From: an uncultured Gammaproteobacteria bacterium
GTDB lineage: Bacteria; Patescibacteriota; Patescibacteriia; CAZGFX01
Direction: 5' to 3'
DNA length: 64,000 nt
Assembly: GCA_964524845.1 (NCBI GenBank)
Contig: CAZGFX010000002.1
Coordinates: 227,428 to 291,427 of the forward strand
Part shown: positions 1 through 33,043 of the stretch, piece after piece
Layout of the letters: every line of letters starts with the position of its first letter
Position numbering within the stretch: position 1 is the first letter of the stretch
Position numbers and translations under genes: made by a program
The notes under the pieces: model-generated
Told to the model about the DNA's origin: nothing
The model's input: the letters and a program-made list of their open reading frames with translations, nothing else
The model's database searches: none

Positions 1-2280
1 TTCTTCACCGTGTTCTTCTGTTGACGCTGTATATCCATAATTTGGAGCCTCTCCATATGATGTAACCGGCTGTGTTCCATATAAGACACGCCCTCGAGCT
101 GGAATGTTTGTTCTCCATGTTACCAATATTGATGTCTCGTTTATTTGAGTTAAATCCGGAACATCTCCTCCTGTGGAATTAATTACATGTGGTGTAAATA
201 CGGTCGTTACCGCACCACCACCTCCACCACTTGTAGGAGTACATGATTGATTATTTCCAGAAGTTGTTTCTTTTTGGCATGTTGATGAACATCCATCGCT
301 AGAAACAGCATTTCCATCTTCGCACGTTTCTCCTGTATCAAGAATTCTATTTCCGCATATTTCAGTAGATAGACAACTTGAGCTACACCCATCTCCTGAT
401 ACTATATTTCCATCATCACACTCTTCGTTTCCTTCAATAATAGAGTTTCCACACGTTTGACCCGTACCTCCTGTTGTTGAAAGAGAATATACATCTCTCT
501 CCATTATATTTCCATTCAAATCTCTCGTATACACAATAATTGGAATGGTTTCTCCAGCAATGAAATCAACTTGCGGATCAAGAACAAATGAATAATTCGT
601 CGCCGTTCCTGATATGCCAGTAGTATCACCCGGATAATTTACACCGAATACACCAGTATCAAATTTTAGACTACTAGAAAAAGTGATGCGTGTACCCGAT
701 GTTGTCACAGATCCTGCTCCTCCTGAACGTGTATAATAAGAACCATTAACATAAACGATCGTATTTGCAATATCTACACCAACTCCCGAATCAACTATAT
801 CGAATTGAATCGTCCCATTAATCACAATATTACTATCATTTCCGGGAGCTTTATTAATTACTTGTGGTCCCGTAGCATCGCTAGTGGCAAAAGTATAATT
901 ATCAGTAACCATTGTGTTAGGGGTTAATGCATTGTCCTCACAATCATAAACAGAAACGGATATTATCTCGTTTTCTAGAAAATCACTTGGTGGATTAATT
1001 CCAAACCTAATTCCATAATCAATTGCTGATATTGTAACTTCCGGATCTCCTTGTTGATATGTATGAAGCGGAACACTTGGCGACGAAACATTTATTCGGC
1101 ATGTTCCTGCGTTTATTCCACTTCCTGATATCGATCCGGGGTATGTTTTTTTATCTAAAATATCAACTGAGATGTTTGTATTAACAGCGTTTCCCGAAGA
1201 GCCTCTTGATGGCGACTCTCCTTGAACACGAGGAGCAATATTATCCGTCTCTGTTTGAAACGTGTATGATTTTGCACTCATTGTGTTTGGACCGTTCGGA
1301 TCACCAAGTTGATCCTGGGTTGTTGAAGCCCTGTCTTTAAATCCTGATATCTCTACTGTATACGAAGTATCATATTTCCAATTTCTCTGATCTCCTCCGA
1401 CACCAGATGGACTACTTGGATTAAGTGTAGTCGCACACACATTCGTTCCCCACACTCCTGAGCACGAATACGAATCAAATGCTGTTGCATCAACTGTATT
1501 TGCATTTTCGGTTATTGTAATAACTCCGTAACCAACTCCTGTAGAAGTATTGACTCCAGTACCCACCCCTGAATTATCACCCTCGCCGTTTTTACTATCG
1601 CGAAGAGTAAATTGATAATTTGAATCAACCGCTACGTCAGTCGCACCATCTGCTGGAACAGGAGAAAGAGCATATGGAGACTTCGTATCTGCCCATACAT
1701 GAAAATTAAAATCTTCAACATCATCGAGAAGGTCGGCTCCGGCAAGAGATATATTACTGTCGGTGGTCTGTCCAATAATTCCCTCCTCAATATCTAGTAC
1801 CGCAGCAGATCCTGTGCCATAATTTGCAACGGTTGGACGATTAGCCGTAAAACGAACCGTACCAAAAGATCCGGTTCCGGATGAATTTGGAGCCGAAATA
1901 TTAAACCCCGTTGATTTTACCTTACCTCCAGAAATTGTTTGACTACTCCATGTATTAAAATATGATCCTGTCGTAAGATTGCTCGCATCGCATATTGCCG
2001 TATTGTAACCAATAATAATATTTGACGCGTTTGTTCCTCCTGACTTTATGCGCATAGTCGTCGTGAACTGTTGGCCTACATAATAATAATTAAAATCATT
2101 TGGATTTCCAGTTCCTCCATCTCCTGTATCATCAGACCCTGTTTGTTGTCCTGTGATTAATTCAAAAGTATCATCTCCTGAAGGAGTATCAGCAAACACG
2201 CTCATTGGCATACACAATGAAAAAAACACCGAAACAATCGCTATGTATGATATAAAAAACTTTGATTTTATACTATTCAT
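1..2280 (-). CDS. large secreted cysteine-rich surface protein; 3' end lies beyond window start (>=760 aa here)
   Basis: ATG at 2278-2280 (minus), 5 bp downstream of the stop of the 2285..3412 gene. N-terminus MNSIKSKFFISYIAIVSVFFSLCMPMSVFA is a signal peptide. No competing ORF >=60 aa in any frame across 393-2284. It is absent from the ORF track only because its stop is outside the window. Cys-rich repeats and an FN3-like stretch near 1-400. Confidence 0.55.
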   Translation of the reverse strand, partial: MNSIKSKFFISYIAIVSVFFSLCMPMSVFADTPSGDDTFELITGQQTGSDDTGDGGTGNPNDFNYYYVGQQFTTTMRIKSGGTNASNIIIGYNTAICDASNLTTGSYFNTWSSQTISGGKVKSTGFNISAPNSSGTGSFGTVRFTANRPTVANYGTGSAAVLDIEEGIIGQTTDSNISLAGADLLDDVEDFNFHVWADTKSPYALSPVPADGATDVAVDSNYQFTLRDSKNGEGDNSGVGTGVNTSTGVGYGVITITENANTVDATAFDSYSCSGVWGTNVCATTLNPSSPSGVGGDQRNWKYDTSYTVEISGFKDRASTTQDQLGDPNGPNTMSAKSYTFQTETDNIAPRVQGESPSRGSSGNAVNTNISVDILDKKTYPGSISGSGINAGTCRINVSSPSVPLHTYQQGDPEVTISAIDYGIRFGINPPSDFLENEIISVSVYDCEDNALTPNTMVTDNYTFATSDATGPQVINKAPGNDSNIVINGTIQFDIVDSGVGVDIANTIVYVNGSYYTRSGGAGSVTTSGTRITFSSSLKFDTGVFGVNYPGDTTGISGTATNYSFVLDPQVDFIAGETIPIIVYTRDLNGNIMERDVYSLSTTGGTGQTCGNSIIEGNEECDDGNIVSGDGCSSSCLSTEICGNRILDTGETCEDGNAVSSDGCSSTCQKETTSGNNQSCTPTSGGGGGAVTTVFTPHVINSTGGDVPDLTQINETSILVTWRTNIPARGRVLYGTQPVTSYGEAPNYGYTASTEEHGEE

Positions 2281-2284
2281 TGTG

Positions 2285-3412
2285 TTAATTATCTCCTGTT
2301 AAATCCAAATTGGCAAGTAATAATGACAGGTCAATTGAATTAACTATAGTGTCTTGATTTAAATTTGACCTGAAAGCGTTTCCTGTCGGATCATCAGCGT
2401 CTAGATCCGGTAACATAAGCGATAAATCCACCGAGTTAATCGCGTCATCACCGAGTGTTGTTGGCGATAATCCTACCCCATTTATATCTCCTGCGAAAAG
2501 CGTTTGTGTACCAAACGTTCCCGAATTATTAGACTGAGTGAAATTTAAAATATTGTTTCCTTCATTAAGGACAACATCTTGTAACACTTTTGTTATATGA
2601 GATTTTCCTTTTAATCCTATATCATAAGTTCCCGCGGTGATACCAGTAAAATCGATTGGCACGAGATACGTACCATCGCTTGCTAAAGTAGCCAGTGAAG
2701 GCTGTGTAAATAACACAACATCATCTGAGTTTGTGCTTGTACGAACAGTTAAATAAAAATCAGTGTCATAATTTGTTCCTAGTGCTCCTGAACGAGATTC
2801 CGGCACAGCCCATTGTACTGTTGCGCTTGTGTTTCCTCCGTCTTGAACACATACCGGAACAGGGGTAACGTTGCCTTCTACATTTATTCCTTGTACAGTG
2901 CCAACTACTTGGACACTTCTAGACCCTATATCACCAAATGTTCCAGCGACATCAATCGTATAATTTCCTCCAACAGAAGGGTTTACGACTAGATTTTCCG
3001 CGCAGTTTGCCATAAATTTTCCTATTTCAATTACTATGGATCCTCCGGCGGGAATCGTCGCCGTATTCGATGTAAATGTAATTACATTGCTACTTATATT
3101 AACGCCCCACATTGTTCCACTAGCAAGTGCCGCGACAGGTTGTCCTACACTATTAATTTCAATATCAACATCCTCATATGTAATAGAAGATATATCAAAC
3201 TCCGAGGCGAAAGTTACAGCAATTGTTTCTCCAGCATCAAGCCCCGAAGGTGTTAAAAATGATAATCTGTATCCAACTCCATCTCCAATACCAAGACTTG
3301 TGGTATTAACGGAATATCCGACGATTCCCGCCGCCATAACAGAAAACATCGGCATAAAAATCATGCCTATAGATATAAATGATCGCAGAAATATTGAAAA
3401 AAATTTTCTCAT
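2285..3412 (-). CDS. secreted protein with C-terminal tandem dockerin-like (Ca-binding loop) repeats
   Basis: N-terminal signal peptide MRKFFSIFLRSFISIGMIFMPMFSVMAAG. C-terminus has two repeats, GDDAINSVDLSLML and QDTIVNSIDLSLLLANL, matching the dockerin type I loop D-x-N-x-D-x-x-[IV]-N-S-x-D-L-x-L. Confidence 0.6.
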   Translation of the reverse strand: MRKFFSIFLRSFISIGMIFMPMFSVMAAGIVGYSVNTTSLGIGDGVGYRLSFLTPSGLDAGETIAVTFASEFDISSITYEDVDIEINSVGQPVAALASGTMWGVNISSNVITFTSNTATIPAGGSIVIEIGKFMANCAENLVVNPSVGGNYTIDVAGTFGDIGSRSVQVVGTVQGINVEGNVTPVPVCVQDGGNTSATVQWAVPESRSGALGTNYDTDFYLTVRTSTNSDDVVLFTQPSLATLASDGTYLVPIDFTGITAGTYDIGLKGKSHITKVLQDVVLNEGNNILNFTQSNNSGTFGTQTLFAGDINGVGLSPTTLGDDAINSVDLSLMLPDLDADDPTGNAFRSNLNQDTIVNSIDLSLLLANLDLTGDN

Positions 3413-3463
3413 CGTTTGTTTGTTTTTATATTATTTTATCTGTGTACAAAATATAATTAAAAA

Positions 3464-4381
3464 TTATTTCTTTTTTTGTTTTTTTCTTTTATAAATGAAT
3501 ACTGATCCTAAAACACAAATAATTACACAAACTATAATAATTATCATCGCGGGTGAAAATATCCATACGTTCAAATCCTGTATCGGTGTTTTTATGTCAC
3601 CACTAGACGAATAAGTAAGTGATACTTTGTATTTGCCAAATCTATACCAATCTCCGGCACCATCCCAATTAGTTTTGAATTCCCTGGGGCTACCAGGCAA
3701 TACTCTTCCTAGCTCCTCATTTAAAAATAATCGACCGACAGTATTTCCAAACAAGTTCGTTACTTTCAAATCACCATAAGGCCTCTCATCAGTGGTGCCT
3801 GTGTTTTTTACAACAGTTGATAATATTAAAGGATTTCCAAAAAGAATATTTTTTTGAGTATAAAACTGTTTTATTGATATTCCTCTCTGTGCCTTTTCTT
3901 TATCAACCGTGATAAAAACCGGCAAAAACATTCTTCCTAAAACAGAATCTCCAGTACCATCGGCTCGCTGACTTGTAACACGAAAACCAGCATGATAAGT
4001 CCCACTTGGCGTCCCCACCGGAACCGAAACTTCATACTTCATCGCGACAGGAGCATCATTCACAAGATATGCGCCGTTATCTTTCATAATAATCCAAGGC
4101 GTAATATCGGGATCCGCTTTATCAGGAGACACAATTTCAGGAGTCTTCCCGTCTTCTTTAACAATAAAATTATGAGTGGTGACAACAAATTTCTTCGGCG
4201 CGCCACTCTCTTTCATAATAAGTTCAAAAGAACCACTGATCCGCTCTCCTGATTGCACCTGAATTTCTTTGAAATACGGATTGGCTGTTATAGAATATGC
4301 TCTTACTTCATTGAATAAAAAAACTCCGCTACACAACACGATAATGATCACCAACCCTTTCGTGTAGCGGAGTATATTCAT
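3464..4381 (-). CDS. cell-surface protein with N-terminal signal and C-terminal TM anchor plus basic tail (DUF916/DUF3324-like architecture)
   Basis: Signal/TM LVIIIVLCSGVFLFNEVRA. C-terminal AMIIIIVCVIICVLGSVFIYKRKKQKKK. Architecture resembles the Gram-positive WxL-locus DUF916 proteins. Family assignment is inference. Confidence 0.5.
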   Translation of the reverse strand: MNILRYTKGLVIIIVLCSGVFLFNEVRAYSITANPYFKEIQVQSGERISGSFELIMKESGAPKKFVVTTHNFIVKEDGKTPEIVSPDKADPDITPWIIMKDNGAYLVNDAPVAMKYEVSVPVGTPSGTYHAGFRVTSQRADGTGDSVLGRMFLPVFITVDKEKAQRGISIKQFYTQKNILFGNPLILSTVVKNTGTTDERPYGDLKVTNLFGNTVGRLFLNEELGRVLPGSPREFKTNWDGAGDWYRFGKYKVSLTYSSSGDIKTPIQDLNVWIFSPAMIIIIVCVIICVLGSVFIYKRKKQKKK

Positions 4382-4400
4382 ATTTATGAGTACAATTATG

Positions 4401-5354
4401 TTATTTGCGTTTCTGTGCGGCTCGCTTTACCCATACTGACAAAATCGTTCTAACGACAAACAATGCAATAATCACGATAAGAATCGCTCGCCATGAAATG
4501 ACCCAGAAACTAACTTCGGAATTAAATGTTTTTCCTTGGGTTCCCCATGCTGTATCAAGCTTTGCGGTATATCTTCCGAAACCGAAATTCTTGAATTCAG
4601 CCTTCACCTCATCAACAAAAGATAAATCTGTTAGCTCTTTCTCACGAGTGAAAATCTTGCGAATTGAGTTCGGATATACGAGCGCGCTCGACTCATTTGC
4701 ATTAAGTACACGAGCAACTCCTCCGAACATGTTTTTCACCTCGACTACGCCCTCGGGTTTGTAGTGGACATTTCCAGTGTTTGCGTAACGTGTCATGAAG
4801 TTAACAGGAAAACGATTATAAAACTTCTTCGCAGTAGAAAACTCAACGACTTCTCCTGCTTCCGTCGCCTCACCAGCAACTCTCATCGCGATAATAGTAC
4901 CAACTTGTGCCTCAATTCCAGCTCCGGAACCCTCTATCTTACCTTCAAATTTTTCTTTAGATAAAACAATTGCATAATGACCGCCAGGAGTAGCATCAGA
5001 AGGAACTGTTATTTTAAAATTAACATCTTTTATTTCTTTTGGTTCAAATTTTATTTCTGTTACTGGAAATGATATCCAGTTTTGTAAATCATTTACTGTT
5101 TTATCAAGCTCTTCAAAAACAGGACTTCCTGTCTCGTTCGCATTAGGAGAAAACGCTTTCACAGATAAAGACACTGTGATCGGCACATCTTTTTCGTTTT
5201 GAAGCTTAATAACCCTTTCAAGCACGGACCCTGGATCTGTGTTTTCTTCTAATAGAGTAGTCTTCATAGTCAGCGCATTGGCGCCAGATCCCAAGAAAGC
5301 AAACACAATCATCGTCAATAACCCAATAATATAATATCTAAACTTTTTATTCAT
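4401..5354 (-). CDS. cell-surface protein with N-terminal signal and C-terminal TM anchor plus basic tail (paralogous architecture to 3464..4381)
   Basis: Signal YYIIGLLTMIVFAFLGSGANA. C-terminal WRAILIVIIALFVVRTILSVWVKRAAQKRK. Sits 20 bp from the neighbouring anchored protein gene. Confidence 0.5.
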   Translation of the reverse strand: MNKKFRYYIIGLLTMIVFAFLGSGANALTMKTTLLEENTDPGSVLERVIKLQNEKDVPITVSLSVKAFSPNANETGSPVFEELDKTVNDLQNWISFPVTEIKFEPKEIKDVNFKITVPSDATPGGHYAIVLSKEKFEGKIEGSGAGIEAQVGTIIAMRVAGEATEAGEVVEFSTAKKFYNRFPVNFMTRYANTGNVHYKPEGVVEVKNMFGGVARVLNANESSALVYPNSIRKIFTREKELTDLSFVDEVKAEFKNFGFGRYTAKLDTAWGTQGKTFNSEVSFWVISWRAILIVIIALFVVRTILSVWVKRAAQKRK

Positions 5355-5430
5355 AAAATAATATAACTAATCAATTACACAGTATTCTATCCGTAGCAAA
5401 AACCACAGATAGAATTTGTAAAATCGACGA

Positions 5431-5955
5431 TTAATTAACAGTGATTGTATATTCAACAATATGACTGTAACTTCCTGCTGGAGTGCTATTTCCTGCACGA
5501 GCACCGTGCTCAACAGTTATATCACCTTGGTACACTGGTCCCGCAGATGTTGCGAAATCACCAGCTATTGTAGGTACTCCCTGATATGCTGAACCATAAG
5601 AACCTGACATTGTGAAATCAGCTGTTGTACCATAAAAACCATAATCATTATCACCAAGAGCTCCTGTTGCATCGTCAAAACTATCTGTTCCATCTGTAAA
5701 TGCAGTATCAGCATCAGCCTGAATAGTAGCCCCATCAGTATCATTGGTAGTTCCAACTATTGTATAATTACATGTTGTGCTACTACCAACAGGGATTGTA
5801 CCCAAATCGCAAGTAGGAGATGCGATACTTAGAGCTGTATTATCAGATACAGTACCACTTACAGTAACACTGTCGCTCGTTTGAGCGAACGCCTGTGGCA
5901 CGACAAGCATCGATGCCAAGGTTAACATCAAAATTTCTGAAAGAAATTTCTTCAT
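5431..5955 (-). CDS. small secreted Thr/Gly/Asp-rich protein
   Basis: Signal peptide MKKFLSEILMLTLASMLVVPQAFAQ. Low-complexity T/S/G/D-rich mature region. First gene of the minus-strand surface-protein cluster. Confidence 0.5.
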   Translation of the reverse strand: MKKFLSEILMLTLASMLVVPQAFAQTSDSVTVSGTVSDNTALSIASPTCDLGTIPVGSSTTCNYTIVGTTNDTDGATIQADADTAFTDGTDSFDDATGALGDNDYGFYGTTADFTMSGSYGSAYQGVPTIAGDFATSAGPVYQGDITVEHGARAGNSTPAGSYSHIVEYTITVN

Positions 5956-6282
5956 AATAAGTTAGATTAATCTTTTAAATAAATGTTTTAGATATTTTTG
6001 TGGTAGTTTATTAGTTCCACTTAAATATCTTCAGCGCGTGGCTGAGTTTTGTTTTATCTTCTTTTGTGAACACATTTTATCAACATTGCGCGTAAAAACA
6101 AATTGTTTACACACAACTGATATTAGTTTAACATATTTTTTACATTTTATATATATTATCATTATATTATTGTGAATAAAATCGCTTATTTTTACTATTT
6201 TCAGAATTATTAAACATTATTATCTGGAAAGGTTTTGATATATTGTGTACAATATAATTAGGCTAAAATTAGAGATTTTTAT

Positions 6283-7404
6283 ATGTTTAAGCTACTTCAG
6301 CAATTAATTAAAAAAACGTCTTTGAGACTCGATTCTTTAAATGTTATTTCGATATATAGAGATTGTATTGTCAATAATTTCAATGTGTATAAAACGCATT
6401 CGGAATATATTTTTCCTGTACTCAAGTCAAACGCATACGGACACGGCATCGAACAGATCGCGACAATACTCAATGATATAGAAACTCCATATGTTACAGT
6501 AGATAGTTATTATGAATATCTCAAAATAAAAAAAATAACAAGGCACAAAGTTTTGATTATGGGATATAACCCACTTTCAAATCTACGTCTTTTTAATTAT
6601 AAAAAAATTGCAATTCTTGTTAATGATATTCCTACTCTGAAAGTACTAGCTTCGCTCGATACACAAATCACGATACATCTGAAGTTCAACACCGGTATGA
6701 ATCGTCAAGGACTTGAATTCGAAAACATTCCACAGATTATGGATTTGTGCAAAAAAAGAAATATTACTATAGAAGGAGTTGCGACTCACCTTGCTTGCGC
6801 GGATTCCGATGAACGAATTGTACAAGAACAATATGCAAAATTCGATGAAATAATCCGTGAAATAAAAAAACGAGGAGTTCATGTAAAATATATACACGTC
6901 AGCAATAGTGCAGGATCCAGATTTAACAAAAAAGAATATAATACGATACGGCTCGGACTCGGATTATATGGATATTTCACAGGCAAAGAAAACGAAATTA
7001 CTAGCAAACTTCTTCCTGGTCTTGAATTTAAAAGCACGATCATCAATGTACGAAATATTAAAAAAGGGGAGCACATCGGATATGATTATACATATACTGC
7101 GCCATGCGACATGATTATAGGCGTTGTTCCTGTGGGATATTATGAAGGAGTTGATAGATCGCTTTCAAATAACGGATATATGACGGTACGCGGAGTAAAA
7201 TGCCCAATTGTAGGTAGGGTTTCAATGAATATTTCAACAATAGATATAACAAGAGCGAACGCTGTCATGGGAGATGATATTTTGTTTATTTCAAAAGACA
7301 AAAATGCTGAAAATAGTGTGGTAAATATAGCGTCAAATACGAATACGATTCCTTATGTCGTCACTACTAAATTAAGTGAAAGTATACGAAGAAAAATTGT
7401 TTAA
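6283..7404 (+). CDS. alr: alanine racemase
   Basis: PLP-lysine motif VLKSNAYGHG near the N-terminus. Length and C-terminal barrel region are typical of Alr. Confidence 0.85.
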   Translation: MFKLLQQLIKKTSLRLDSLNVISIYRDCIVNNFNVYKTHSEYIFPVLKSNAYGHGIEQIATILNDIETPYVTVDSYYEYLKIKKITRHKVLIMGYNPLSNLRLFNYKKIAILVNDIPTLKVLASLDTQITIHLKFNTGMNRQGLEFENIPQIMDLCKKRNITIEGVATHLACADSDERIVQEQYAKFDEIIREIKKRGVHVKYIHVSNSAGSRFNKKEYNTIRLGLGLYGYFTGKENEITSKLLPGLEFKSTIINVRNIKKGEHIGYDYTYTAPCDMIIGVVPVGYYEGVDRSLSNNGYMTVRGVKCPIVGRVSMNISTIDITRANAVMGDDILFISKDKNAENSVVNIASNTNTIPYVVTTKLSESIRRKIV

Positions 7405-7428
7405 CACAAACAATCGCAACACGCAAAA

Positions 7429-7971
7429 TTAAAACTCATATACATATATTGGACCAAGCGCCTTCTTATCAAGTTGTATAACTCGAGCAGGTTCCATGTC
7501 CTTCATATTAAATGCATATGATATTACTTTTGCTCCCGGTTTAAGTTGCGCGCGCCACACGGGATACATGCGATTCATGAATTCCGGCATCGTGAAACAA
7601 ATAATTACATCCGCCATACTATAATCAGCGGTAAACGCATTTTCAAATCGCACAGTCATCCCGGGATTCATCCATGATCTTGTCTTCGCGAATATATAAG
7701 GGATAAAAAAAAGTTCAAATCCAATTGACTTGGTTTTGTATTCCCGTGTGGCGCGCGCAATAATACGTCCATCACCACATCCAGGATCAATAACAATTTT
7801 TCCAGGAGAAAGTTCCGCTGATTCCAACATGGCATCAATGATTTTCCTAGGAGTTGGAACCCAAGGAGCTCCCCAAATCATCGCTTTCACAAATTGAAAA
7901 AGAAGATATGCTAAAAAAAGAAATATACAAGCAAAAATAATTGTTTTAGCTATTTCTATAATCATAATCAT
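7429..7971 (-). CDS. membrane-anchored class I SAM-dependent methyltransferase
   Basis: N-terminal TM helix. SAM-binding motif I VIDPGCGDGRI. Confidence 0.6.
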   Translation of the reverse strand: MIMIIEIAKTIIFACIFLFLAYLLFQFVKAMIWGAPWVPTPRKIIDAMLESAELSPGKIVIDPGCGDGRIIARATREYKTKSIGFELFFIPYIFAKTRSWMNPGMTVRFENAFTADYSMADVIICFTMPEFMNRMYPVWRAQLKPGAKVISYAFNMKDMEPARVIQLDKKALGPIYVYEF

Positions 7972-8021: not shown

Positions 8022-10028
8022 TTATTTTTTCTTCATCTCATGAACTCCTGACCACTCGTGCTCAAGTCCTTTTGAAATTATTTCATCAATACGCGTCATG
8101 TGCGTCATACTTGGACCATCATTATATTTTTCTACAAGAAACGCGAACACCTCCCTTGCTTCTTTCAGTTTTCTTGAATCAAGAAGTGACATTGCATCTG
8201 CGTATCTAGAACAAATGTCTTTATATTGATCATCTGTGATATCAAAAACTTCTCCAATAAGTTCATAAATACGAACGGTGTTTTGTTTTCCTTTTACCTT
8301 CACAGCATCAATATATCTATATACAAGATCCTTGTCTTTTCCTATATTTTGAAGCTCGATTAATGTGGATTCGGAAAATATAATATATGTTCCGTATTCT
8401 TTGTTTAAACCCTCAAGACGAGATGCAAGATTCACTCCGTCTCCAATTGCTGTATAATCAAATCTTTGGAGCGATCCTACATTTCCAACGATTGCTTCGT
8501 CAGTATTTATACCAATTCCTATTGCAAGTGATTTCGAAATGGTTTTCTCTTCTTCCCATTTTTTATTCAGTTCAACAAGAGCCTTCTTCATATGAAGCGC
8601 TGTGAGCAAGGCACGATATGATTGTTGTTCATCGGAAAGAGGCGCGCCCCAAAGACACATAATCGCATCTCCTATATATTTATCAACGACGCCTTCGTGT
8701 CCGAATATAATATCAGTCATGCGCGAAAGATACTGATTTAGAATTAAAACGAGGTTTTCCGCATTCATTTTTTCTGACAAAGATGTGAAACCTCTGATAT
8801 CAGAAAATAGTACCGTTATCTTTTTTCTATCACCTCCCAATTTAATAGAATTCATCGATTTCAAAATTTCATCAGCAACAGGTGGCGATACATATGACAT
8901 AAATACCTTCCTGATACGACGCTTCTCTTTCTCTTCTGTGAGAAAACGAAATATAACTATGACACCATATACGATTACGAGCCCTGTTACAGGATAAAGA
9001 ATAGACGGTATAATTCCATTATCAAATAATTGAAATGAAATAATTGTATAAATAACGATACTTACAACCACTACCACAATCCCATATAATGGACGCACAA
9101 TCATATAAAGAAACGCCCCACAAATCATAATACAAAGAAGAACGAGAAGAACCGAGTGCGGCGCCTGCTCGCGCAAAAACTTCCCAGCAAGCACGGTGTT
9201 AAGTGCATGAGCATGAATCTCAACTCCTGTCGTCAGCGCCCCTCGCGAAAGCGGCGTAACATACGTATCGTGAAGATCCGGCGCAGTACTTCCTATAAGC
9301 ACAATACTGTTTTCAAATATAGATGGGTTGAATTGCTTCCTAAGCACATCTGCAAAAGAAATAGTCCTGAAGCGAGCAGGCGCCGCCGCAAAATTAATTA
9401 GCATGCCTCCTTTCTCATCACTTACAATATTTAACAGATCATCTCCTCTATATAAACGTACTATACGAGCAAAAAAACTTTCAATAATAACATCATTATA
9501 TTTAGCAGAAACAGGAAGTTTTCTCACAACACCATCTCTATCTATAATCACATTTGTTATGCCGTGTGCTAGGGCTTTTTTATATATTTCAGGAGTAGAC
9601 ACAAGAACAGAACGAGCAGTGTGATAATCAGACACACCGGCAAACTCGACCTCAACAGGCAATACTACATTTCCTGCTTTTGATATTGATTCAGCAAATA
9701 GCGAGTCTTCATCAGTCGGCTCCGGAAAATTAACATCGATGCCAATAACTGAAGGTTTGTGTTCATTTATAATATCAACCGCTTCTCCGAAAACAGATCG
9801 ATCCCACGGCCACCTTCCAATACTCTGTATACTCGCATCATCGATTGCAATAATGACTATTTTCTCTGAAGTAGGATAGGATCCATAGAGCTTGTCTGAA
9901 AATTTCCATTGCCATGAATCAAATATATTTGATCCGTACAAAATAGCAAAAACAAACCATACAATACATCCTATGCCAATGGCCTTCGTATAATGATTCG
10001 ATAGAATTGAACGAAACAAACGATTCAT
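8022..10028 (-). CDS. CHASE2 sensor domain adenylate/guanylate cyclase
   Basis: N-terminal TM, extracytoplasmic CHASE2-like region and 3 further TMs. C-terminal class III cyclase domain (VLFSDIRGFTSLSE ... YIGDAIMCLWGAP). Confidence 0.8.
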   Translation of the reverse strand: MNRLFRSILSNHYTKAIGIGCIVWFVFAILYGSNIFDSWQWKFSDKLYGSYPTSEKIVIIAIDDASIQSIGRWPWDRSVFGEAVDIINEHKPSVIGIDVNFPEPTDEDSLFAESISKAGNVVLPVEVEFAGVSDYHTARSVLVSTPEIYKKALAHGITNVIIDRDGVVRKLPVSAKYNDVIIESFFARIVRLYRGDDLLNIVSDEKGGMLINFAAAPARFRTISFADVLRKQFNPSIFENSIVLIGSTAPDLHDTYVTPLSRGALTTGVEIHAHALNTVLAGKFLREQAPHSVLLVLLCIMICGAFLYMIVRPLYGIVVVVVSIVIYTIISFQLFDNGIIPSILYPVTGLVIVYGVIVIFRFLTEEKEKRRIRKVFMSYVSPPVADEILKSMNSIKLGGDRKKITVLFSDIRGFTSLSEKMNAENLVLILNQYLSRMTDIIFGHEGVVDKYIGDAIMCLWGAPLSDEQQSYRALLTALHMKKALVELNKKWEEEKTISKSLAIGIGINTDEAIVGNVGSLQRFDYTAIGDGVNLASRLEGLNKEYGTYIIFSESTLIELQNIGKDKDLVYRYIDAVKVKGKQNTVRIYELIGEVFDITDDQYKDICSRYADAMSLLDSRKLKEAREVFAFLVEKYNDGPSMTHMTRIDEIISKGLEHEWSGVHEMKKK

Positions 10029-10031
10029 ATA

Positions 10032-11849
10032 TTATCTCATGATCGAAAAATCACTAAATCCATCTTTGAAATACTCGACCCAGAGTTTCTGCTTTTCAAA
10101 AGACTCACTCTTAAATACTTCCAGTTTTCCTACTTTTACGAGAGATTCTATAAATTTACGATATTGTTCCGGTGTTAAGCCAAATTGATTTGTTTCAATA
10201 GGAGTTGTCGGGAGAGGTTGTGTAGGAATTGGTTGTGGTAGAATAGGTGCCTGGATTTTTTGAGGATCTGTAGGAATAACAGGTGTTTGCCCAAGCAAGT
10301 TAAGAGTCTTGGGATCAATCAGGTTTTTTTCCGGAATAGGAAGCGAGTTGAGTGTTTTTAAACCATCGTTCATTTGATTGATAATTGTTGTTTTTTGATC
10401 TTCTGACAATGGAATCTGTTTAAGTAAATCTTTTACACCCTGTATTTCTTTTACTCCTATTCCCCTATAAAGATTGATTCTTTCAAGTGAACGAGAAAGA
10501 TCGTCGTCACCATTTTTATCTTTTTGCATTTTATTAATGTCTTTTTCGAGATTTATACGCTTCTGTTCGAGATCATAATATTCTTTTGAATCAGCGTTCT
10601 TTCCTTTTATATCAATGTATTTGCGTTTCAATTGATCCATTTCTCTCATTTTCAACTCTCGTTCGTTTAAGTTCATTGGATTTTTCTGAATAAAATCATC
10701 CTGGACCGAATCAATCGCCGCAACATAATCCTTTGTTTTACTTGAATCAAGCGCGAATATGGCTTTTTCATTTCTCTTCACAAACTCATCTATTTTTTCT
10801 CCTACGAACCCTCGTTGGTTTTGATCAAGTGATAATGCACCGGATATTTTTTCTTTCATTGTTGTTTCATACTGTACCATTAGGCTTTTTGACGTCTCAC
10901 TATCTCCTTTTTGTTCCAAAAGTAGCGCTTCGTCAAACCTGCGTCGAGCAAAATCAAGCTCTTTTTCGAGTTTCTTTTCATCGTCTCCTGTAAGAGAAAT
11001 ATCGAGTTTTTCAACGGCTTTTTTTATTCCATACAAAGCAGAATCAGGAAGAATCTTTTCTTTTTCCTGAAGTCGCTTCATCTCCTTCTCTTTCATTTGT
11101 TGTTCGAACTCGCCATCACGATTTTGATTTTGTTGAAACCAATCTGTTTTTTTAACCTCATCGGATATTTTTTCAATAATGATATTCTGTGATACAATAG
11201 GAAGCTCTTTCGGATCGAAACTAACTTGATTATCTTCCGGAACCGAAACTTTCGCCATTCTTTCGGTAATTTTTAATTTTCTTTTCCCAGTCACAGAATC
11301 TTTCTCTATAATTGTTTTTACCGCTTGCACCTCAACAACGTTGTCCGCAACTTGTACATCTGTTTTTCCTTCCTCATCAACGGAAACATCAAGCGCCGTG
11401 CCTCGCACAGTAGCGACGGCCGTTGGTGTCTGAATTGAGAAATCAGAATCTTTGTCTATTAGACGGAGTACTCGCGACCACACCGTTCCTTTTACAACGC
11501 CTATACCAATACGCTGTTCATAAGAACGATCAGTATTATAAAAAAGTGTATCAAGAGAAATTTCTGTATTCTCATCAAGACGACTCGTGCTATTATCAAA
11601 AAAAGAAAGTACGACGAAAGAATCTGAGCCTGTCTTAATCATGTCTCCTGTATGCACTTCGTCACCGACAAAAAGCTGTTTCCAATCAGTCGAATCAGCC
11701 GATTGAATAAGAACACTGCCTTTTGTTTCCATTATTTCGCTTTTCAAAACAGGCTCTTCATCTGAATACGCAAACGTCGTATATGCATAAGCTCCTCCAC
11801 CTCCTATAACAAAAAGAATTATAAGAAGAGTGATAAGTGTTTTTTTCAT
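10032..11849 (-). CDS. FecR-domain protein with coiled-coil/DUF5667-like C-terminal half
   Basis: Track ORF starts at a TTG (11900). First ATG gives MKKTLITLLIILFVIGGGGAYA as signal/TM. FecR-like beta-sandwich motif GDMIKTGSDSFVVLSFFDNSTSRL. Stop is 3 bp from the cyclase start. FecR+CHASE2 cyclase is a known gene pair. Confidence 0.6.
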   Translation of the reverse strand: MKKTLITLLIILFVIGGGGAYAYTTFAYSDEEPVLKSEIMETKGSVLIQSADSTDWKQLFVGDEVHTGDMIKTGSDSFVVLSFFDNSTSRLDENTEISLDTLFYNTDRSYEQRIGIGVVKGTVWSRVLRLIDKDSDFSIQTPTAVATVRGTALDVSVDEEGKTDVQVADNVVEVQAVKTIIEKDSVTGKRKLKITERMAKVSVPEDNQVSFDPKELPIVSQNIIIEKISDEVKKTDWFQQNQNRDGEFEQQMKEKEMKRLQEKEKILPDSALYGIKKAVEKLDISLTGDDEKKLEKELDFARRRFDEALLLEQKGDSETSKSLMVQYETTMKEKISGALSLDQNQRGFVGEKIDEFVKRNEKAIFALDSSKTKDYVAAIDSVQDDFIQKNPMNLNERELKMREMDQLKRKYIDIKGKNADSKEYYDLEQKRINLEKDINKMQKDKNGDDDLSRSLERINLYRGIGVKEIQGVKDLLKQIPLSEDQKTTIINQMNDGLKTLNSLPIPEKNLIDPKTLNLLGQTPVIPTDPQKIQAPILPQPIPTQPLPTTPIETNQFGLTPEQYRKFIESLVKVGKLEVFKSESFEKQKLWVEYFKDGFSDFSIMR

Positions 11850-11998
11850 AATAAAATATTTTATATGCCCATATATTACACCTATTTTTATAAAAAACAA
11901 AAAACCCTCCTAAAAAGGGTTTATAAAATAAGAATGGCGTGCCAACCGTAGCCGACTTGTACTCCGAAGTCAACAGACGAAGGAGTAAGGGCGAAGGT

Positions 11999-12380: not shown

Positions 12381-12410
12381 TAAAAAAAGCCATTTTAAAT
12401 TAAAATGGCT
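12381..12410 (-). terminator. rho-independent terminator downstream of the 12427..13059 gene
   Basis: 10-bp perfect stem agccatttta/taaaatggct with 3-nt loop. U-run on the minus-strand transcript. Confidence 0.5.
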
Positions 12411-12426
12411 AAAAATTTTTATTATA

Positions 12427-13059
12427 CTATACGACCTGTTTTGAACGTTGCAAATATTGCCTTATAGACAATATTAATATCGAGCCGTTTCCAAGTATTC
12501 CATTAATAAATGGATAAGCTAGCTCATAAGCTAAATTTGTGTAATCGCCTTTGAAATCAATAATAATCGAAGCGATTGAAAACACATAAGCTAGAACGGC
12601 CGCTACCCACACAGGAGGGGCTTCTTTTAATCGTCCTGTCCACAAACCTTTTATTGTAGGTATGCTTGCTGCAAACATTATAATCTGTAATACAACATTT
12701 GCTTCTCTTGCCCCAAACAATAACCACAAAATCAGAACTCCTCCAATAAACCACAAAAATTTTCTCTCGTAAGAGTTAAATTTTGCAAACTTCTTTTGTC
12801 TGAATAAATAAATAAACAAAGAAGTTAATAATATCGCAGTGACAACGGCTATTAGAGATTTTCCCCAGTGCACATCTACAATTATTGTATACGTAATTGC
12901 ATTTATTATAAGCCCGACCACCCATATAAACCATGATGTAATACTCGGAATAGATGTCCCACGCCGCGCTTGAAAAAAATACAGTGTATATGTAACAACG
13001 ACCAAACAACTCGCTATAATGCCAAATAAATGACTTAATGTAATGTTTTCAAATAACAT
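12427..13059 (-). CDS. polytopic integral membrane protein of unknown function (~6 TM)
   Basis: Hydrophobic helices throughout. No recognisable catalytic motif. Confidence 0.45.
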   Translation of the reverse strand: MLFENITLSHLFGIIASCLVVVTYTLYFFQARRGTSIPSITSWFIWVVGLIINAITYTIIVDVHWGKSLIAVVTAILLTSLFIYLFRQKKFAKFNSYERKFLWFIGGVLILWLLFGAREANVVLQIIMFAASIPTIKGLWTGRLKEAPPVWVAAVLAYVFSIASIIIDFKGDYTNLAYELAYPFINGILGNGSILILSIRQYLQRSKQVV

Positions 13060-13255: not shown

Positions 13256-14686
13256 ATGCCTATGTCAGAACAGCAAAAAACACAAGGGCGTATACCCCCT
13301 CAAAATCTCGAAGCGGAACAATCCGTGCTTGGTGCACTTTTGATTGATAAAGAAGCCATACAAAAAATAGAAGGGTCTTTGAATCCTGAAGATTTTTATA
13401 AGGAGGCGCACGGAATTATATTTGATGTCATGCGTTCGCTTTATGAACACAATGAGCCGATCGACGTCCTCTCTGTAAGTAACAAGCTGGCGGAACGCAA
13501 AATGCTCGACAAAGTCGGAGACACACTTTATCTAAAAGAACTCACCACCATAGTACCTACGAGCAGTCACATCGAAACATATTCGAACATCGTCCAAAAG
13601 AAATCAATGCTCCGTAAACTCCTATCCGCATCATATGGTATTGCAGAGCTAGCTGAAGACAGCGACGATGATGTGGTTCGTCTTCTTGATGAGGCCGAAC
13701 AAAAGATATTTGATATTTCAAAAAAACACCTTCGTCAAAACTTCGTCGATATTAATACTGTTCTTTCTACGGCTTTTGATCGAATTGATGAGTTACACAG
13801 AAACAAGGGCAAGCTCACAGGAATCACTACTGGGTTTGTTGAAATAGATCAAATGCTTGGTGGTTTGAATCGATCTGACCTAATCATCCTTGCCGCACGC
13901 CCATCCGTTGGAAAAACAACCCTAGCACTTGATATGGCTCGTCATGCAGCAATTTTCGGCGGCGCGACTGTCGGAATATTCAGTTTGGAAATGGCAAAAG
14001 AGCAACTCACCGATCGCCTTCTCGCCGCAGAAGCAAATATCGAATTATGGAAAATGCGCACCGGAAATCTCGGCAACGATCCGGACGACAATGATTTCGA
14101 GAAATTGAGTAATGCGCTCGACACGCTTTCAAAGACGAAAATATTTATGGATGATTCCGGAAGTGCGAACGTGATGGAGGTCCGCACAAAGGCGCGCCGC
14201 CTTCAATCAAAATACGGGCTAGACATGTTGATAGTCGACTATCTTCAACTTATGGAAGGAAGAAGCCATAGTGATAATAGATATCTTGAAGTAACCGAAA
14301 TTACACGCGGACTAAAACAAATCGCAAAAGAACTTCACATTCCTGTGTTAGCGCTTTCACAGCTATCCCGTACTGTCGAGCAACGAGGTGGTATTGCGAT
14401 CCCACGTCTTTCAGACCTTCGTGAATCAGGATCAATCGAGCAAGATGCTGATGTTGTTATGTTTATCTACCGCAAAAAAATGGACCGCACTCAAGTGTGT
14501 GCACCAGAAGAAGAGCATACGGCCGAAATTCATATAGCAAAACATCGCAATGGGCCAACAGGAAAAATTGATCTATATTTTGACGATAGAAAAACAACAT
14601 TCAGAAACATAGAAAAATACCGCGCTCACGAAGGAGGTTTTGATGCTTCATATATTCCACCAGCTCCTGGATATTCAGGAAACTAA
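13256..14686 (+). CDS. dnaB: replicative DNA helicase DnaB
   Basis: N-terminal PPQNLEAEQSVLGALL motif. Walker A ARPSVGKTT. C-terminal HIAKHRNGPTGKIDLYF. Track ORF starts at 13178; conserved N-terminus begins at ATG 13256/13262. Confidence 0.9.
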   Translation: MPMSEQQKTQGRIPPQNLEAEQSVLGALLIDKEAIQKIEGSLNPEDFYKEAHGIIFDVMRSLYEHNEPIDVLSVSNKLAERKMLDKVGDTLYLKELTTIVPTSSHIETYSNIVQKKSMLRKLLSASYGIAELAEDSDDDVVRLLDEAEQKIFDISKKHLRQNFVDINTVLSTAFDRIDELHRNKGKLTGITTGFVEIDQMLGGLNRSDLIILAARPSVGKTTLALDMARHAAIFGGATVGIFSLEMAKEQLTDRLLAAEANIELWKMRTGNLGNDPDDNDFEKLSNALDTLSKTKIFMDDSGSANVMEVRTKARRLQSKYGLDMLIVDYLQLMEGRSHSDNRYLEVTEITRGLKQIAKELHIPVLALSQLSRTVEQRGGIAIPRLSDLRESGSIEQDADVVMFIYRKKMDRTQVCAPEEEHTAEIHIAKHRNGPTGKIDLYFDDRKTTFRNIEKYRAHEGGFDASYIPPAPGYSGN

Positions 14687-14765
14687 ATATATAAGTTGTT
14701 CGCTTACTACTAATAATTGAAAATGGTATACTAATAACGTTTTTATCATTATATAAATATATTTT

Positions 14766-15065
14766 ATGAGCATGTTCAGTAAACTCAAACAAATCAAAGA
14801 TCTCCGCGAAAAAGCAAAAAAAGTACAGGGGCTTTTGAGCGGAGAAGAGGTCACCGCTTCTGCGCGAGGAATTAGTATAACTATGGATGGTATGCAAAAA
14901 ATAACTCGAGTAGAATTATCGGATGATATGCTTGGAGTTGATCACAAAAAAGACCTCGAAAAATCAATCGCGGAAGCATATAACGACGCTGTCAAAAAAT
15001 TACAAACTGTCGTCGCGAAAAAAATGAAAGAAAGTGGCGATTTTAACTTGCCTGGACTAAGTTAA
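14766..15065 (+). CDS. ybaB: nucleoid-associated protein YbaB/EbfC
   Basis: ~100 aa with a GISITMDGMQKITRVELSDDML core. Immediately precedes recR, the conserved ybaB-recR pair. Confidence 0.85.
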   Translation: MSMFSKLKQIKDLREKAKKVQGLLSGEEVTASARGISITMDGMQKITRVELSDDMLGVDHKKDLEKSIAEAYNDAVKKLQTVVAKKMKESGDFNLPGLS

Positions 15066-15067
15066 TA

Positions 15068-15664
15068 ATGGAAACAGCGATACAGCGACTTGTTGAGCAG
15101 TTCGATAAACTTCCCGGAATCGGCCCGAAAAACGCCGAACGTTTGGCGTATTTTTTTCTTACACTTCCGGATGCGGCTCAACAAGAGTTTATAGCTTCTT
15201 TTACAAAAGCCGCCGGAGAAATCACAACGTGTGATGAGTGTAACAATCTCAGTGAGAAAAATCCTTGTCCGATTTGCACAAACCCCAGAAGAGACAAACA
15301 TATACTTTGTATTGTTCCTGAATACAAAGAGTTATACGCAATCGAACGCACAGGAGAATACAAGGGACTTTATCATATTATAGGAGGTGTCATAGCTCCG
15401 CTTCAAGGAATCACCCCGAAAGATCTGGATATTCATAAAATGATCGAAAGAATAAAAAACGATAAGAATATCACCGAAGTGATATTGGCAATCAACCCAA
15501 ATATCGAGGGAGAAACGACAATGATGTATATTACGGCTCTTCTAAAAGATTTACCCGTAAAAATCACACGACTAGCACGAGGAATACCTGTAGGAAGCGA
15601 GATCGAGTACATAGATGAGATGACCCTCGGCGACGCACTCAAAGAAAGAAGAGCGGTAAAATAA
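15068..15664 (+). CDS. recR: recombination protein RecR
   Basis: HhH motif LPGIGPKNAERLA. Cys4 zinc finger CDECNNLSEKNPCPIC. Toprim region. Confidence 0.9.
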   Translation: METAIQRLVEQFDKLPGIGPKNAERLAYFFLTLPDAAQQEFIASFTKAAGEITTCDECNNLSEKNPCPICTNPRRDKHILCIVPEYKELYAIERTGEYKGLYHIIGGVIAPLQGITPKDLDIHKMIERIKNDKNITEVILAINPNIEGETTMMYITALLKDLPVKITRLARGIPVGSEIEYIDEMTLGDALKERRAVK

Positions 15665-15668
15665 AAAA

Positions 15669-15700
15669 ACAGGCTATGGTTTCCATAACCTGTTTTTGGT
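15669..15700. terminator. bidirectional hairpin terminator between recR (+) and the 15714 gene (-)
   Basis: acaggctatgg/ccataacctgt 11-bp stem (1 mismatch), followed by TTTTT. Confidence 0.5.
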
Positions 15701-15713
15701 TTCTTCTAAAAGT

Positions 15714-16499
15714 TTACAATTTCCAAGGGTGGAGAATGTTATATTTTTTATTTCTTACAACAACATCTGTGGCGTATAACATGTTTTGCAACAAGTCTTT
15801 GTTTTTTTCTACAATATCTTCTTTCTGATAATATTTTGAAGGTACAATTTTTGAATTATCCGTACGAATTGCGAACCACACACGATTGGTGTCATTAAAA
15901 AACACCTCAACATCGACAGTATCCCCTGACTTATAATGTTTTCGTATACCTGGTACACATAAATCCTGATCACTATGAGGTAAAACCTTAATATTTTTAG
16001 TTTTGTTAACAACTTGATAAAAACCCCATCCGTGATCAACTTTTTGATCAAGCATACTATCGGGATATATGAGTCGCGTCAGAACAACAACGTTTTCTCC
16101 AACAACAATGGAATCGTATTCGTTAATAGTGAGTTTTGATCGCTCAATCGTATTACTGTCTTTTCCATAATACGTTCTGGAATATTCCAGGTTTCCTTCC
16201 CACCAAGACGAGCATCTCTGTATCGATAAAACACCTTCTAAAAACGAATGTCTATTCGATATCACAGATGCCTGAACATCATTGTTTTTGTTTTGCAAAA
16301 ACGAACCGCCAAATAACAGAAAAAAAACGGTGAGAACAATAGTAAAAGAAAGTGAAATAATAATAAACTTCTTTACTAATATTGCTTTTCTTTCATTAAA
16401 TTTACCCCTGATAATGTGCACCGTACAAAATGCCATAGCAAAACAAAGAAATATGGCAATAAGTCCCAGTGCGACAGCAAAAATATCTAACTGATTCAT
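15714..16499 (-). CDS. hypothetical membrane protein (2 N-terminal TMs, extracytoplasmic domain)
   Basis: ORF with ATG start. TM helices in the first 70 aa. No known motifs. Confidence 0.45.
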   Translation of the reverse strand: MNQLDIFAVALGLIAIFLCFAMAFCTVHIIRGKFNERKAILVKKFIIISLSFTIVLTVFFLLFGGSFLQNKNNDVQASVISNRHSFLEGVLSIQRCSSWWEGNLEYSRTYYGKDSNTIERSKLTINEYDSIVVGENVVVLTRLIYPDSMLDQKVDHGWGFYQVVNKTKNIKVLPHSDQDLCVPGIRKHYKSGDTVDVEVFFNDTNRVWFAIRTDNSKIVPSKYYQKEDIVEKNKDLLQNMLYATDVVVRNKKYNILHPWKL

Positions 16500-16607
16500 A
16501 CAAACCCCCTTTTTAAGTTATTTTAAGTTATTTAGGAAATTAAGTTTATTTTTCTTATTAAACCATTGATTATATATGAACAATCAATGGCTTTAAAGCA
16601 AAATAAT

Positions 16608-17486
16608 TTATTTATTTTGTTGTTTTTGTTTCCGCATGTTATGAGCTACGCCCGATAACATTACATACCGCCCAAAACCGCCTGTAACCTCATCAACCAT
16701 GGCAATAAGTATATCGTCACCATCTACAACAACTCGGTCAGTAACCTTCATTGAAAACAAGGCTCCGAGTTGTTGACCATTAAAAACCTGTGTTTTACAC
16801 TTATGATCTTTTGAAAATCCGTAATCCACGAATTTTTCATAAAAATCTTTTTTTAATTTATTGTCTTTCATAAAAGACAACAAGTTATCGATGAATTCTT
16901 CTCCGGTTTTTTTCATCTTTTCATTGATGGTTCCGATACCACACAAAGATGCTACATATGCCGCAACATCGTTAGCGTCTGAAAAAATAATATTTGACCC
17001 GAAATCACCACTCGATCCCGAAAAAGAAACTTTTTCGTGCTCATCAATACATAAATGTCCCCCTACGAAAATGAACGGAACCAGATTTTCTTCCTCGTTC
17101 ATTGTAAATATTGGTAATTTTTTGTTATCAATTACCGGCCAGTTCATTCTTTCGATATGATCCTTAACTATCTCTTTATGATATCCTTTGTCCAGACTAA
17201 TAAGATCAATGGTTGCCATGTCACCGAAAGAATAAAACCGAATTCCAATAACATATTTTTGATCCTCTTTTGCACGATCGCTTTTTTCGATATACGAACG
17301 CACAACAATCATGGCTGTAGTAAATTTGTCGTGAAAAAGATTTCCATTTGGATTGCCATCGATCTCAATCGCAAAATTCAATAAACCAGTTTTTTCATCG
17401 TATGCTTTCATAAATGAATCAATTGGCCACGATGCAATTAAGGATTTGGTTTGTAAAATTTCTTTGTTAAAAATACAATCTCTCAT
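16608..17486 (-). CDS. hypothetical protein (292 aa, no recognisable domain)
   Basis: Clean ORF with ATG start, predicted soluble. No motif I recognise. Confidence 0.4.
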   Translation of the reverse strand: MRDCIFNKEILQTKSLIASWPIDSFMKAYDEKTGLLNFAIEIDGNPNGNLFHDKFTTAMIVVRSYIEKSDRAKEDQKYVIGIRFYSFGDMATIDLISLDKGYHKEIVKDHIERMNWPVIDNKKLPIFTMNEEENLVPFIFVGGHLCIDEHEKVSFSGSSGDFGSNIIFSDANDVAAYVASLCGIGTINEKMKKTGEEFIDNLLSFMKDNKLKKDFYEKFVDYGFSKDHKCKTQVFNGQQLGALFSMKVTDRVVVDGDDILIAMVDEVTGGFGRYVMLSGVAHNMRKQKQQNK

Positions 17487-17549
17487 AAAAAACCTTTCTT
17501 TTTGTTTTGTTTTATTTTTATAAACCGTTTTTTATCATAATACGATACC

Positions 17550-17578
17550 ATGAAAAAAGCACTATTGCAATAGTGCTG
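17550..17578 (-). terminator. rho-independent terminator ending the liv operon
   Basis: Perfect palindrome gcactattgcaatagtgc followed by a U-run on the minus transcript, 30 bp past the livF stop. Confidence 0.55.
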
Positions 17579-17607
17579 AAGGCTGGTAATTAAGCCAAAA
17601 AACGTGT

Positions 17608-21288: not shown

Positions 21289-21299
21289 ATGTATTATGA

Positions 21300-22433: not shown

Positions 22434-22444
22434 ATGTATTATGA

Positions 22445-23602: not shown

Positions 23603-23614
23603 AAATTAAAAAGA

Positions 23615-33035: not shown

Positions 33036-33043
33036 AAATATAT

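Follow-up and report, generated by a model that had tools for sequence, protein, structure and literature searches.

A two-module surface-protein locus with WxLIP-like membrane anchors and an X-dockerin protein in a Patescibacteria genome

To our knowledge, little is understood beyond type IV pili about the surface of ultrasmall Patescibacteria, either its construction or the means by which these cells cling to their hosts. Most of their secreted proteins carry no annotation. In this study, we asked what is encoded by a run of five minus-strand genes (g1 to g5) at the start of a 64,000-nt stretch of contig CAZGFX010000002.1 (assembly GCA_964524845.1, positions 227,428 to 291,427), hereafter the window, from an uncultured bacterium labeled as a gammaproteobacterium and assigned to Patescibacteriota by GTDB. 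An earlier note, made from the sequence alone, had described these genes as a locus of secreted and membrane-anchored surface proteins, possibly for adhesion, in an organism with a reduced genome that is probably dependent on a host. The five genes proved to be real, and each encodes a protein with an export signal. Their open reading frames (ORFs) follow one another from g1 to g5 with gaps of 76, 19, 51 and 4 nt, in all five N-termini a basic n-region precedes a hydrophobic segment, and each gene has homologues in other genomes. The ribosomal operon of the window (37164-39950; L18, S5, L15, SecY) has no L30 gene in the ∼27 nt between S5 and L15. The absence of L30 from this position is a hallmark of Patescibacteria (candidate phyla radiation, CPR), and the operon is consistent with such an origin. 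The G+C content of the genome is ∼37%, and every named g4 or g5 homologue belongs to a metagenome-assembled genome (MAG) of Patescibacteria.

The locus consists of two conserved modules side by side, module A with g1, g2 and g3, and module B with g4, g5 and a sixth gene, g6, that lies outside the window. This gene was found on the public contig L001, which is identical to the window and supplies the DNA beyond its start. On L001 the same-strand cluster continues through at least three further genes for surface or membrane proteins (g6, g7 and g8), and hence the locus is larger than the five genes first described. A scan of genomes for g5 yielded 13 loci, all of Patescibacteria type; the counts over 17 loci given here add contexts that were fetched earlier. 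The gene for an X-module-dockerin (X-dockerin) protein, g5 and g6 occur in this order in all 16 loci that are long enough, the 17th (L022) ending inside g5. The gene neighborhood is thus conserved in relatives, a point that the earlier note had proposed to check. The five genes do not form the single unit assumed there, but two independently conserved modules, which are neighbors in just 6 of the 17 loci, in varying order and in different Patescibacteria lineages. A family of N-terminal domains is common to both modules, being present in g4 and in large proteins related to g1. Two MAGs titled 'uncultured Gammaproteobacteria' (L016 and L017) carry a Patescibacteria-type X-dockerin/g5/g6 locus with 45-47% identity to the window, and these labels probably reflect mistakes in binning or naming.

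The proteins g2 and g3 are paralogous to each other (BLASTP E = 9e-9, 23% identity across 215 residues), g3 being the second, divergent member of the pair with the same architecture as g2. Both have the signal peptide, C-terminal transmembrane (TM) anchor and basic tail that had been noticed in them, and in g2 two immunoglobulin (Ig)-like beta-sandwich domains (residues ∼29-160 and ∼165-286) precede the TM helix. By BLASTP, g3 matched L003_8001 (E = 2.6e-18) and L009_15139 (E = 6e-16). This architecture had been likened to that of the DUF916/DUF3324 proteins of Gram-positive bacteria, and structure prediction had been suggested as a check. We modeled g2 with AlphaFold2 (predicted local distance difference test score, pLDDT, 85.4) and obtained two beta-sandwich domains followed by the helix (Table 1). 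The best fold matches in the PDB, identified by Foldseek, were structures of WxLIP from Enterococcus faecium (9i25_C and 9i1y, E = 3e-11), the match with 9i25_C extending over ∼255 residues. PapD-type chaperones (CsuC, CupB2, PapD and Caf1M) ranked right after WxLIP, with E values of 4e-8 to 3e-6.

The sequences point in the same direction. The Pfam family WxLIP_PGBD (DUF916) remained below threshold on g2 (E = 1.2e-4, 22.6 bits versus a cutoff of 27.3), with similarly weak matches in 9 of 21 relatives, and WxLIP_HBD (DUF3324) matched neither g2 and g3 nor 19 relatives. As references, we used the WxLIPs of eight WxL clusters from Bacillota plasmids, which were collected by tblastn seeded with one row of a published CscB alignment (PMC1534035); a Pfam check of one of these clusters gave E values of 1e-48 for WxL, 2e-31 for PGBD and 1e-32 for HBD. 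The program hhalign aligned the g2/g3 family with the eight WxLIPs at 98.6% probability (E = 6.7e-16) over 235 columns, which include both Ig domains and reach template column 277; the HBD region comprises residues 161-290 in the Melissococcus WxLIP. A hidden Markov model (HMM) of the family, with E values scaled to 1.8e9 sequences, found five of the eight genuine WxLIPs at E <1e-3 and seven at E ≤2.2e-3, the lowest E being 3.4e-9. The homology is remote (∼13% identity), and the NQIDKxxxYFDLK motif of the WxLIP N-terminus is absent, the segment facing a gap in the g2 family in the hhalign alignment. Hence, fold, profile alignment and family HMM demonstrate a true, if remote, homology of g2 and g3 to WxLIP (DUF916/DUF3324 with a TM anchor), a relationship that goes beyond the architectural likeness noted before; it is clear for the first Ig-like domain (DUF916) and probable for the second (DUF3324). 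The family to which they belong is very large and mostly without annotation, as an exhaustive profile search returned 22,896 cluster representatives at E ≤1e-3 and 3,997 at E ≤1e-30. At L016, the WxLIP-like gene is interrupted, its two parts being ORFs that overlap (16246-16890 and 16508-16993).

The first gene of module A encodes a small secreted protein rich in Thr, Gly and Asp, as had been observed; its composition is 16% Thr, 11% Ala, 11% Gly, 10% Ser and 9% Asp, and its N-terminus is signal-like. The signal peptide is followed by a single domain of ∼150 residues, here called g1dom, the length of which ranges from 151 to 187 residues (about 170) across the family. No Pfam or NCBIfam family matched g1, a word-indexed homologue search returned g1 alone, and a search of PDB sequences with g1 and the g1dom profile gave nothing at E ≤10. 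Residues 17-174 aligned with the C-terminal half of L009_13979-15112 (33% identity, E = 2e-17), the product of the gene immediately upstream of a WxLIP-like gene. The domain stands alone in g1 and in a 200-residue protein of L011, and it is C-terminal in secreted proteins of ∼345-470 residues. Because a homologous domain ends these larger proteins, g1 is the small, 'domain-only' form and the others are 'cargo plus domain' forms. Many members share a conserved pair of Cys residues and a C-terminal aromatic residue. The g1dom gene adjoins one or more WxLIP-like genes in 10 of the 11 loci with DNA (L001-L005, L009, L011, L014, L016 and L032; the L011 match was weaker, E = 0.006), the lone exception being a Thermomicrobiales locus. 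At L032 (4723-13404), three WxLIP-like paralogues follow a single g1dom gene, and a gene ∼2.5 kb downstream of these encodes a protein of >586 residues with Big_13 and a Dockerin_1 domain recognized by Pfam, a further instance of a dockerin close to WxLIP-like genes.

In module B, g4 had been described as a dockerin-repeat protein, and its dockerin is real. We preferred the upstream ATG, which gives 375 residues, to the 356-residue call because its alignments with the homologues P0170 and P0171 start at residue 1-2 and the 375-residue form alone has a signal-like N-terminus. In the AlphaFold2 model (pLDDT 82 overall and 93-97 across residues 195-375), an Ig-like X-module is followed by a dockerin with two loop-helix Ca-binding repeats, the loop Asp/Asn positions of which are invariant across the X-dockerin family. 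Pfam Dockerin_1 (PF00404) did not match g4 at E ≤1 and matched one (P0193) among the 120 homologues listed. Residues 192-375 are 50-62% identical to sequences in over 100 proteins of Patescibacteria. Most X-dockerin homologues have 206-312 residues and consist of a signal peptide and the module alone, lacking a cargo domain. The N-terminal domain of g4 is homologous to that of the large g1dom proteins (BLASTP E = 3e-18, HMM E = 9e-36), which connects the two modules.

The N-terminal ∼600 residues of g5 are strongly conserved and include a Big_5 Ig domain. Homologues with 42-55% identity are located between the X-dockerin gene and the g6 gene in each locus that is long enough. The earlier note had presented g5 as a Cys-rich protein of more than 760 residues with an FN3-like segment. 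The FN3-like domain was found, and the Cys-rich character applies to residues 607-682 only, where 9 of the 15 Cys residues of the window part are located. The repeats in this segment clearly exceeded the family cutoffs (TIGR02232, 73.1 bits versus 20.8; DUF4215, 39.5 bits versus 27) and lie in a variable linker. Three aligned g5 homologues have another Cys-containing segment or nothing at this position, suggesting that the insert is recent; by this comparison, the Cys-rich segment would be a lineage-specific insert that is missing from most g5 homologues. In a Peribacteria MAG (L020), the g5 homologue (5149-7689) has an X-dockerin-like segment at its end (HMM E = 2e-8), the rest of the contig showed no g6, and the X-dockerin protein encoded upstream has two copies of the g4 N-terminal domain.

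The end of g5 and the start of g6 together encode one domain. In the 12 loci with unfused genes (L001, L007-L012, L014, L015 and L017-L019), an Ig-like domain of the Big_13/Big_6 type is cut at the same point by the g5 stop and the g6 start; the L001 junction lies at 12400-12700. The g5 proteins end with the pattern '...G-x-A-x-P-x-x-x-hydrophobic strand-Y/F stop', and g6 continues with '...D/N-x-x-G-x-W...G-x-H'. Concatenating the C-terminal tail of g5 with the N-terminal tail of g6 produced Big_13/Big_6 matches across the junction, which in L018 reached both Pfam thresholds. Three loci (L013, L016 and L021) encode g5 and g6 as a single ORF, and the fused ORF of L016 carries the junction domain uninterrupted. 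The unfused g6 starts mostly 1-11 nt past the g5 stop, and three g6 ORF calls overlap it by 11 nt. Frameshifting or readthrough at the junction was considered and rejected because g6 begins at a start codon of its own (mostly ATG), the frame of which relative to g5 is 0, 1 or 2, depending on the genome. No signal peptide is present in g6, and its two hydrophobic segments flank a short basic loop, from which an N-out/C-out topology is predicted.

How could these proteins work together? We propose that, in this Patescibacterium, the two modules make up a cluster for surface display that works independently of sortase, and we consider the arguments for and against this proposal to be evenly balanced. 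The WxLIP homologues g2 and g3 would be type I membrane proteins with two external Ig-like domains, a helix in the cell's own membrane and the basic tail on the inner side. In analogy to the WxLIP-WxL pair, they would capture secreted proteins bearing g1dom, probably through a strand or loop of their first Ig domain that inserts into g1dom. The captured partner, g1 at this locus and elsewhere a larger protein whose N-terminal domain varies, would be held at the cell surface. In module B, g5 would be secreted as a long ectoprotein. The final two beta-strands of g5 and the N-terminal tail of g6, a protein with two TM segments, would form one Ig-like domain and tether g5 to g6 through inter-chain strand complementation. 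The X-dockerin of g4 would bind Ca and attach the protein to a putative receptor, most simply on g5 or g6, and g4 would thereby present an N-terminal domain belonging to the same family as the one presented by module A via g1dom. The shared N-terminal domain, the partial adjacency of the modules and the g5 homologue of L020 with its X-dockerin-like end fit a view of g1dom and X-dockerin as alternative attachment modules. What the analysis shows are the homologies, the folds of g2 and g4, the conserved gene order and the split domain. The protein-protein contacts, the membrane topology and a role in attachment to a host or substrate are inferred from homology and gene context, which suggest adhesion or surface display as the function of the locus.

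Several observations weigh against this proposal. The Pfam WxL family (PF13731), which the earlier note had named for profile searches, matched neither g1 nor six relatives even at E ≤10, and g1 contains no Trp. Degenerate WxL-like motifs are present in relatives, GWTL in the 200-residue protein of L011 and TWTV in L009_13979. With default settings, hhalign aligned g1dom with WxL over just 15 C-terminal columns, corresponding to the last strand (probability 5%, not significant), and a global run was not significant either. A greedy run gave a co-linear alignment (probability 4.8%, P = 0.008) that paired the landmarks FG, TNAxxG[YWF]x[VL] / DxRGxxxGWxL and AGtYsxxitY / YsstlTWxL. As the co-linear alignment came from the greedy run alone, we do not call g1 a WxL protein; the homology of g1dom to WxL is suggestive, and a WxL-like reading of g1 is plausible and unproven. 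A cohesin, which the earlier note had likewise named for profile searches, was found neither in g5, g6 and their homologues by Pfam nor among the PDB sequences matched by the g5 profile. Since most X-dockerin proteins have no cargo domain, display may not be the general role of module B. In 11 of the 17 loci, moreover, no module A is present within 10 kb of this module. Finally, the proposal assumes that the ∼65-residue N-terminal tail of g6 is translocated without a signal peptide.

The 11 loci with module B alone, together with those in which module A occurs without module B (L002-L005 and L032), are what one would expect if g1-g3 and g4-g6 were independent neighbors in a surface-protein island, with no complex across the five genes. 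Genes for secreted proteins are often clustered in Patescibacterial genomes, the further and unrelated surface genes g7 and g8 point in the same direction as the others, and no functional link was found between g1-g3 and g4-g5. However, adjacency in 6 of 17 loci, in several lineages and gene orders, exceeds the expectation for genomes of ∼1 Mb. The g4 N-terminal domain shared with module A proteins, the short gaps (51 nt between g3 and g4) and the location of all genes on one strand likewise argue for more than chance proximity, and we regard a mere island as rather unlikely. We find it improbable that module A assembles fibers, with g2 and g3 acting as tethered PapD-like chaperones that pass g1dom subunits into a pilus-like filament by donor-strand complementation. 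The fold matches of the g2 model to CsuC, CupB2, PapD and Caf1M would agree with such a role, as would the Cys pair and C-terminal aromatic residue of many g1dom members, which we take to be reminiscent of Csu/SCPU-type subunits. The published WxLIP-WxL model is itself one of strand insertion completing a partner sandwich. Yet the top matches in both fold and profile comparisons are to WxLIP and not to chaperones, no usher-like gene was detected among the called neighbors, and g1dom matched no pilin in searches of Pfam and PDB sequences. A permanent TM anchor suits a receptor better than a chaperone that has to be recycled, and we know of no outer membrane in this lineage.

The fold of g4 also brings to mind a cellulosome-like assembly, in which the dockerin protein would plug into a scaffold that organizes enzymes on glycans of the host or the environment. 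An essential dockerin-domain surface protein has been described in the cultivated Saccharibacterium Southlakia epibionticum, with host glycans as the proposed target (PMC10633639). Its gene, SEML1_0315, is a lone gene encoding 927 residues in a context different from that of the g4 locus (PMC10633639). The X-module and type II dockerin fold of g4 speak for such an assembly, but Pfam and NCBIfam scans identified no glycoside hydrolase (GH), polysaccharide lyase (PL), carbohydrate esterase (CE) or carbohydrate-binding module (CBM) family in g1-g6 or their homologues. Considering also the missing cohesin and the many X-dockerin proteins made of signal peptide and module alone, we judge this explanation to be very improbable indeed.

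The surface-display proposal turns five 'hypothetical proteins' into specific and testable predictions, including a WxLIP-type anchor with a defined partner domain and an X-dockerin, g5 and g6 trio conserved across several candidate phyla. We found no description in the literature of WxLIP relatives or of this trio in Patescibacteria. The split Ig domain could serve as a natural strand-complementation tether, and the g2/g3 family suggests deep relatives, outside the Firmicutes, of the WxL/WxLIP system known from gut members of that phylum. A broader idea, which we offer tentatively and consider doubtful, is a phylum-wide, sortase-free toolkit with which Patescibacteria would mount surface proteins by three non-covalent beta-strand or module dockings. 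Membrane-anchored WxLIP homologues would capture a highly diverged, WxL-type g1dom, the X-dockerin would dock into a putative receptor on a g5-g6 complex, and the split Ig-like domain encoded by two genes would join the ∼850-residue ectoprotein to its membrane anchor, the display domain represented by the g4 N-terminal domain being swapped between WxLIP-type and X-dockerin anchoring. If this were true, the WxL/WxLIP system would be far older and more widespread than its description in Lactobacillales and Bacillales, and these loci would be leading candidates for the machinery with which episymbiotic ultrasmall bacteria attach to their hosts.

The coordinates of the genes and domains are listed in Table 1. 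On L001, two further genes on the same strand (13500-17628) encode g7, a protein of 530 residues with Asp-rich, thrombospondin-type-3-like Ca-binding repeats and a CarboxypepD_reg-like domain, and g8, a protein of >1,075 residues with Calx-beta. Elsewhere in the window, a CHASE2-sensor adenylate/guanylate cyclase (668 residues) is encoded directly downstream of a FecR/DUF5667 protein (622 residues) on the same strand (8022-11900); located near the surface locus, the two could be an extracytoplasmic sensing pair. Nine tandem paralogues of ∼343-385 residues occupy positions 20155-33068, and all five that were scanned belong to Peripla_BP_6 (leucine/isoleucine/valine (LIV)-type solute-binding proteins). 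A BPD_transp_2 permease gene (25176-26042) is located amid them, and the expansion is striking for a small genome.

Table 1. Genes and domains of the locus, with nucleotide positions in the window
Feature	Position (nt)	Strand	Length	Evidence or remark
g1	5431-5955	minus	174 aa	ORF call
g2	4401-5354	minus	317 aa	ORF call
g2 C-terminal TM helix and KRAAQKRK tail (residues 287-317)	4404-4496	minus		hydrophobic segment 279-313, AlphaFold2 helix 288-316
g3	3464-4381	minus	305 aa	ORF call
g3 TM helix and KRKKQKKK tail	3467-3562	minus		hydrophobic segment 267-300
g4	2285-3412	minus	375 aa	ORF call
g4 N-terminal beta-sandwich domain (residues 31-173)	2894-3322	minus		
g4 X-module (Ig-like, 195-290) and type II dockerin-like module (300-375)	2288-2839	minus		two loop-helix motifs in the dockerin-like module
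g5	1-2280	minus	904 aa on L001, of which 760 aa lie in the window	
g5 Big_5 domain	925-1245	minus		
g5 Cys-rich DUF4215/TIGR02232 insert (residues 607-682)	235-462	minus		two repeats, E = 1.2e-20
g5 FN3-like domain	starts at 153, runs off the window	minus		Pur_ac_phosph_N, E = 1.2e-9
g6	beyond the window start, on L001	same as g5	337 aa	two TM segments

Among known systems, the type II cohesin/X-module-dockerin pairs of Clostridium thermocellum (CipA/ScaA; 2b59, 3kcp, 5g5d) are the reference for g4. In contrast to these, g4 is not recognized by Pfam Dockerin_1 and has an insertion in the first Ca loop of its dockerin, no cohesin partner was detected, the locus encodes no enzymes or CBMs, and the conserved neighbors g5 and g6 have no cellulosome counterpart. 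The chaperones of chaperone-usher systems (PapD, CsuC, Caf1M) resemble g2 in fold, with two tandem Ig-like domains, and sequence homology to them was not demonstrated. A strand completing the sandwich of a partner is proposed in both cases, and the split Ig domain of g5 and g6 would be another instance of inter-chain complementation. Unlike the chaperones, g2 and g3 are membrane-anchored and have no usher among the called neighbors, and the g5/g6 split falls at a gene boundary in an ordinary Big_13/Big_6-type domain and not in a pilin.

The closest comparison is with the WxL/Csc clusters, which are defined by a minimum of one WxLIP plus two WxL proteins and have been found almost entirely in Lactobacillales and Bacillales (PMC10599100). 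In the published model, insertion of a WxLIP strand completes the WxL sandwich, and WxL proteins of Firmicutes come in small forms, consisting of the domain alone, and large forms with the domain at the C-terminus (PMC10599100). The locus described here differs from these clusters in its host lineage, Patescibacteria, in having no small LPXTG protein or sortase, and in the sub-threshold Pfam scores of g2 and g3, which match no WxLIP_HBD and lack the NQIDKxxxYFDLK motif. Its g1dom is not recognizable as PF13731 and mostly lacks Trp-x-Leu, with a degenerate aromatic-x-aliphatic pattern at the matching positions. The anchors g2 and g3 are detectable homologues of WxLIP and share its fold, domain order, length and C-terminal TM helix, and their genes adjoin those of secreted proteins with a common domain of 150-190 residues, which is present alone or at the C-terminus. 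The clusters combine one to three anchor paralogues with one to three such partner genes.

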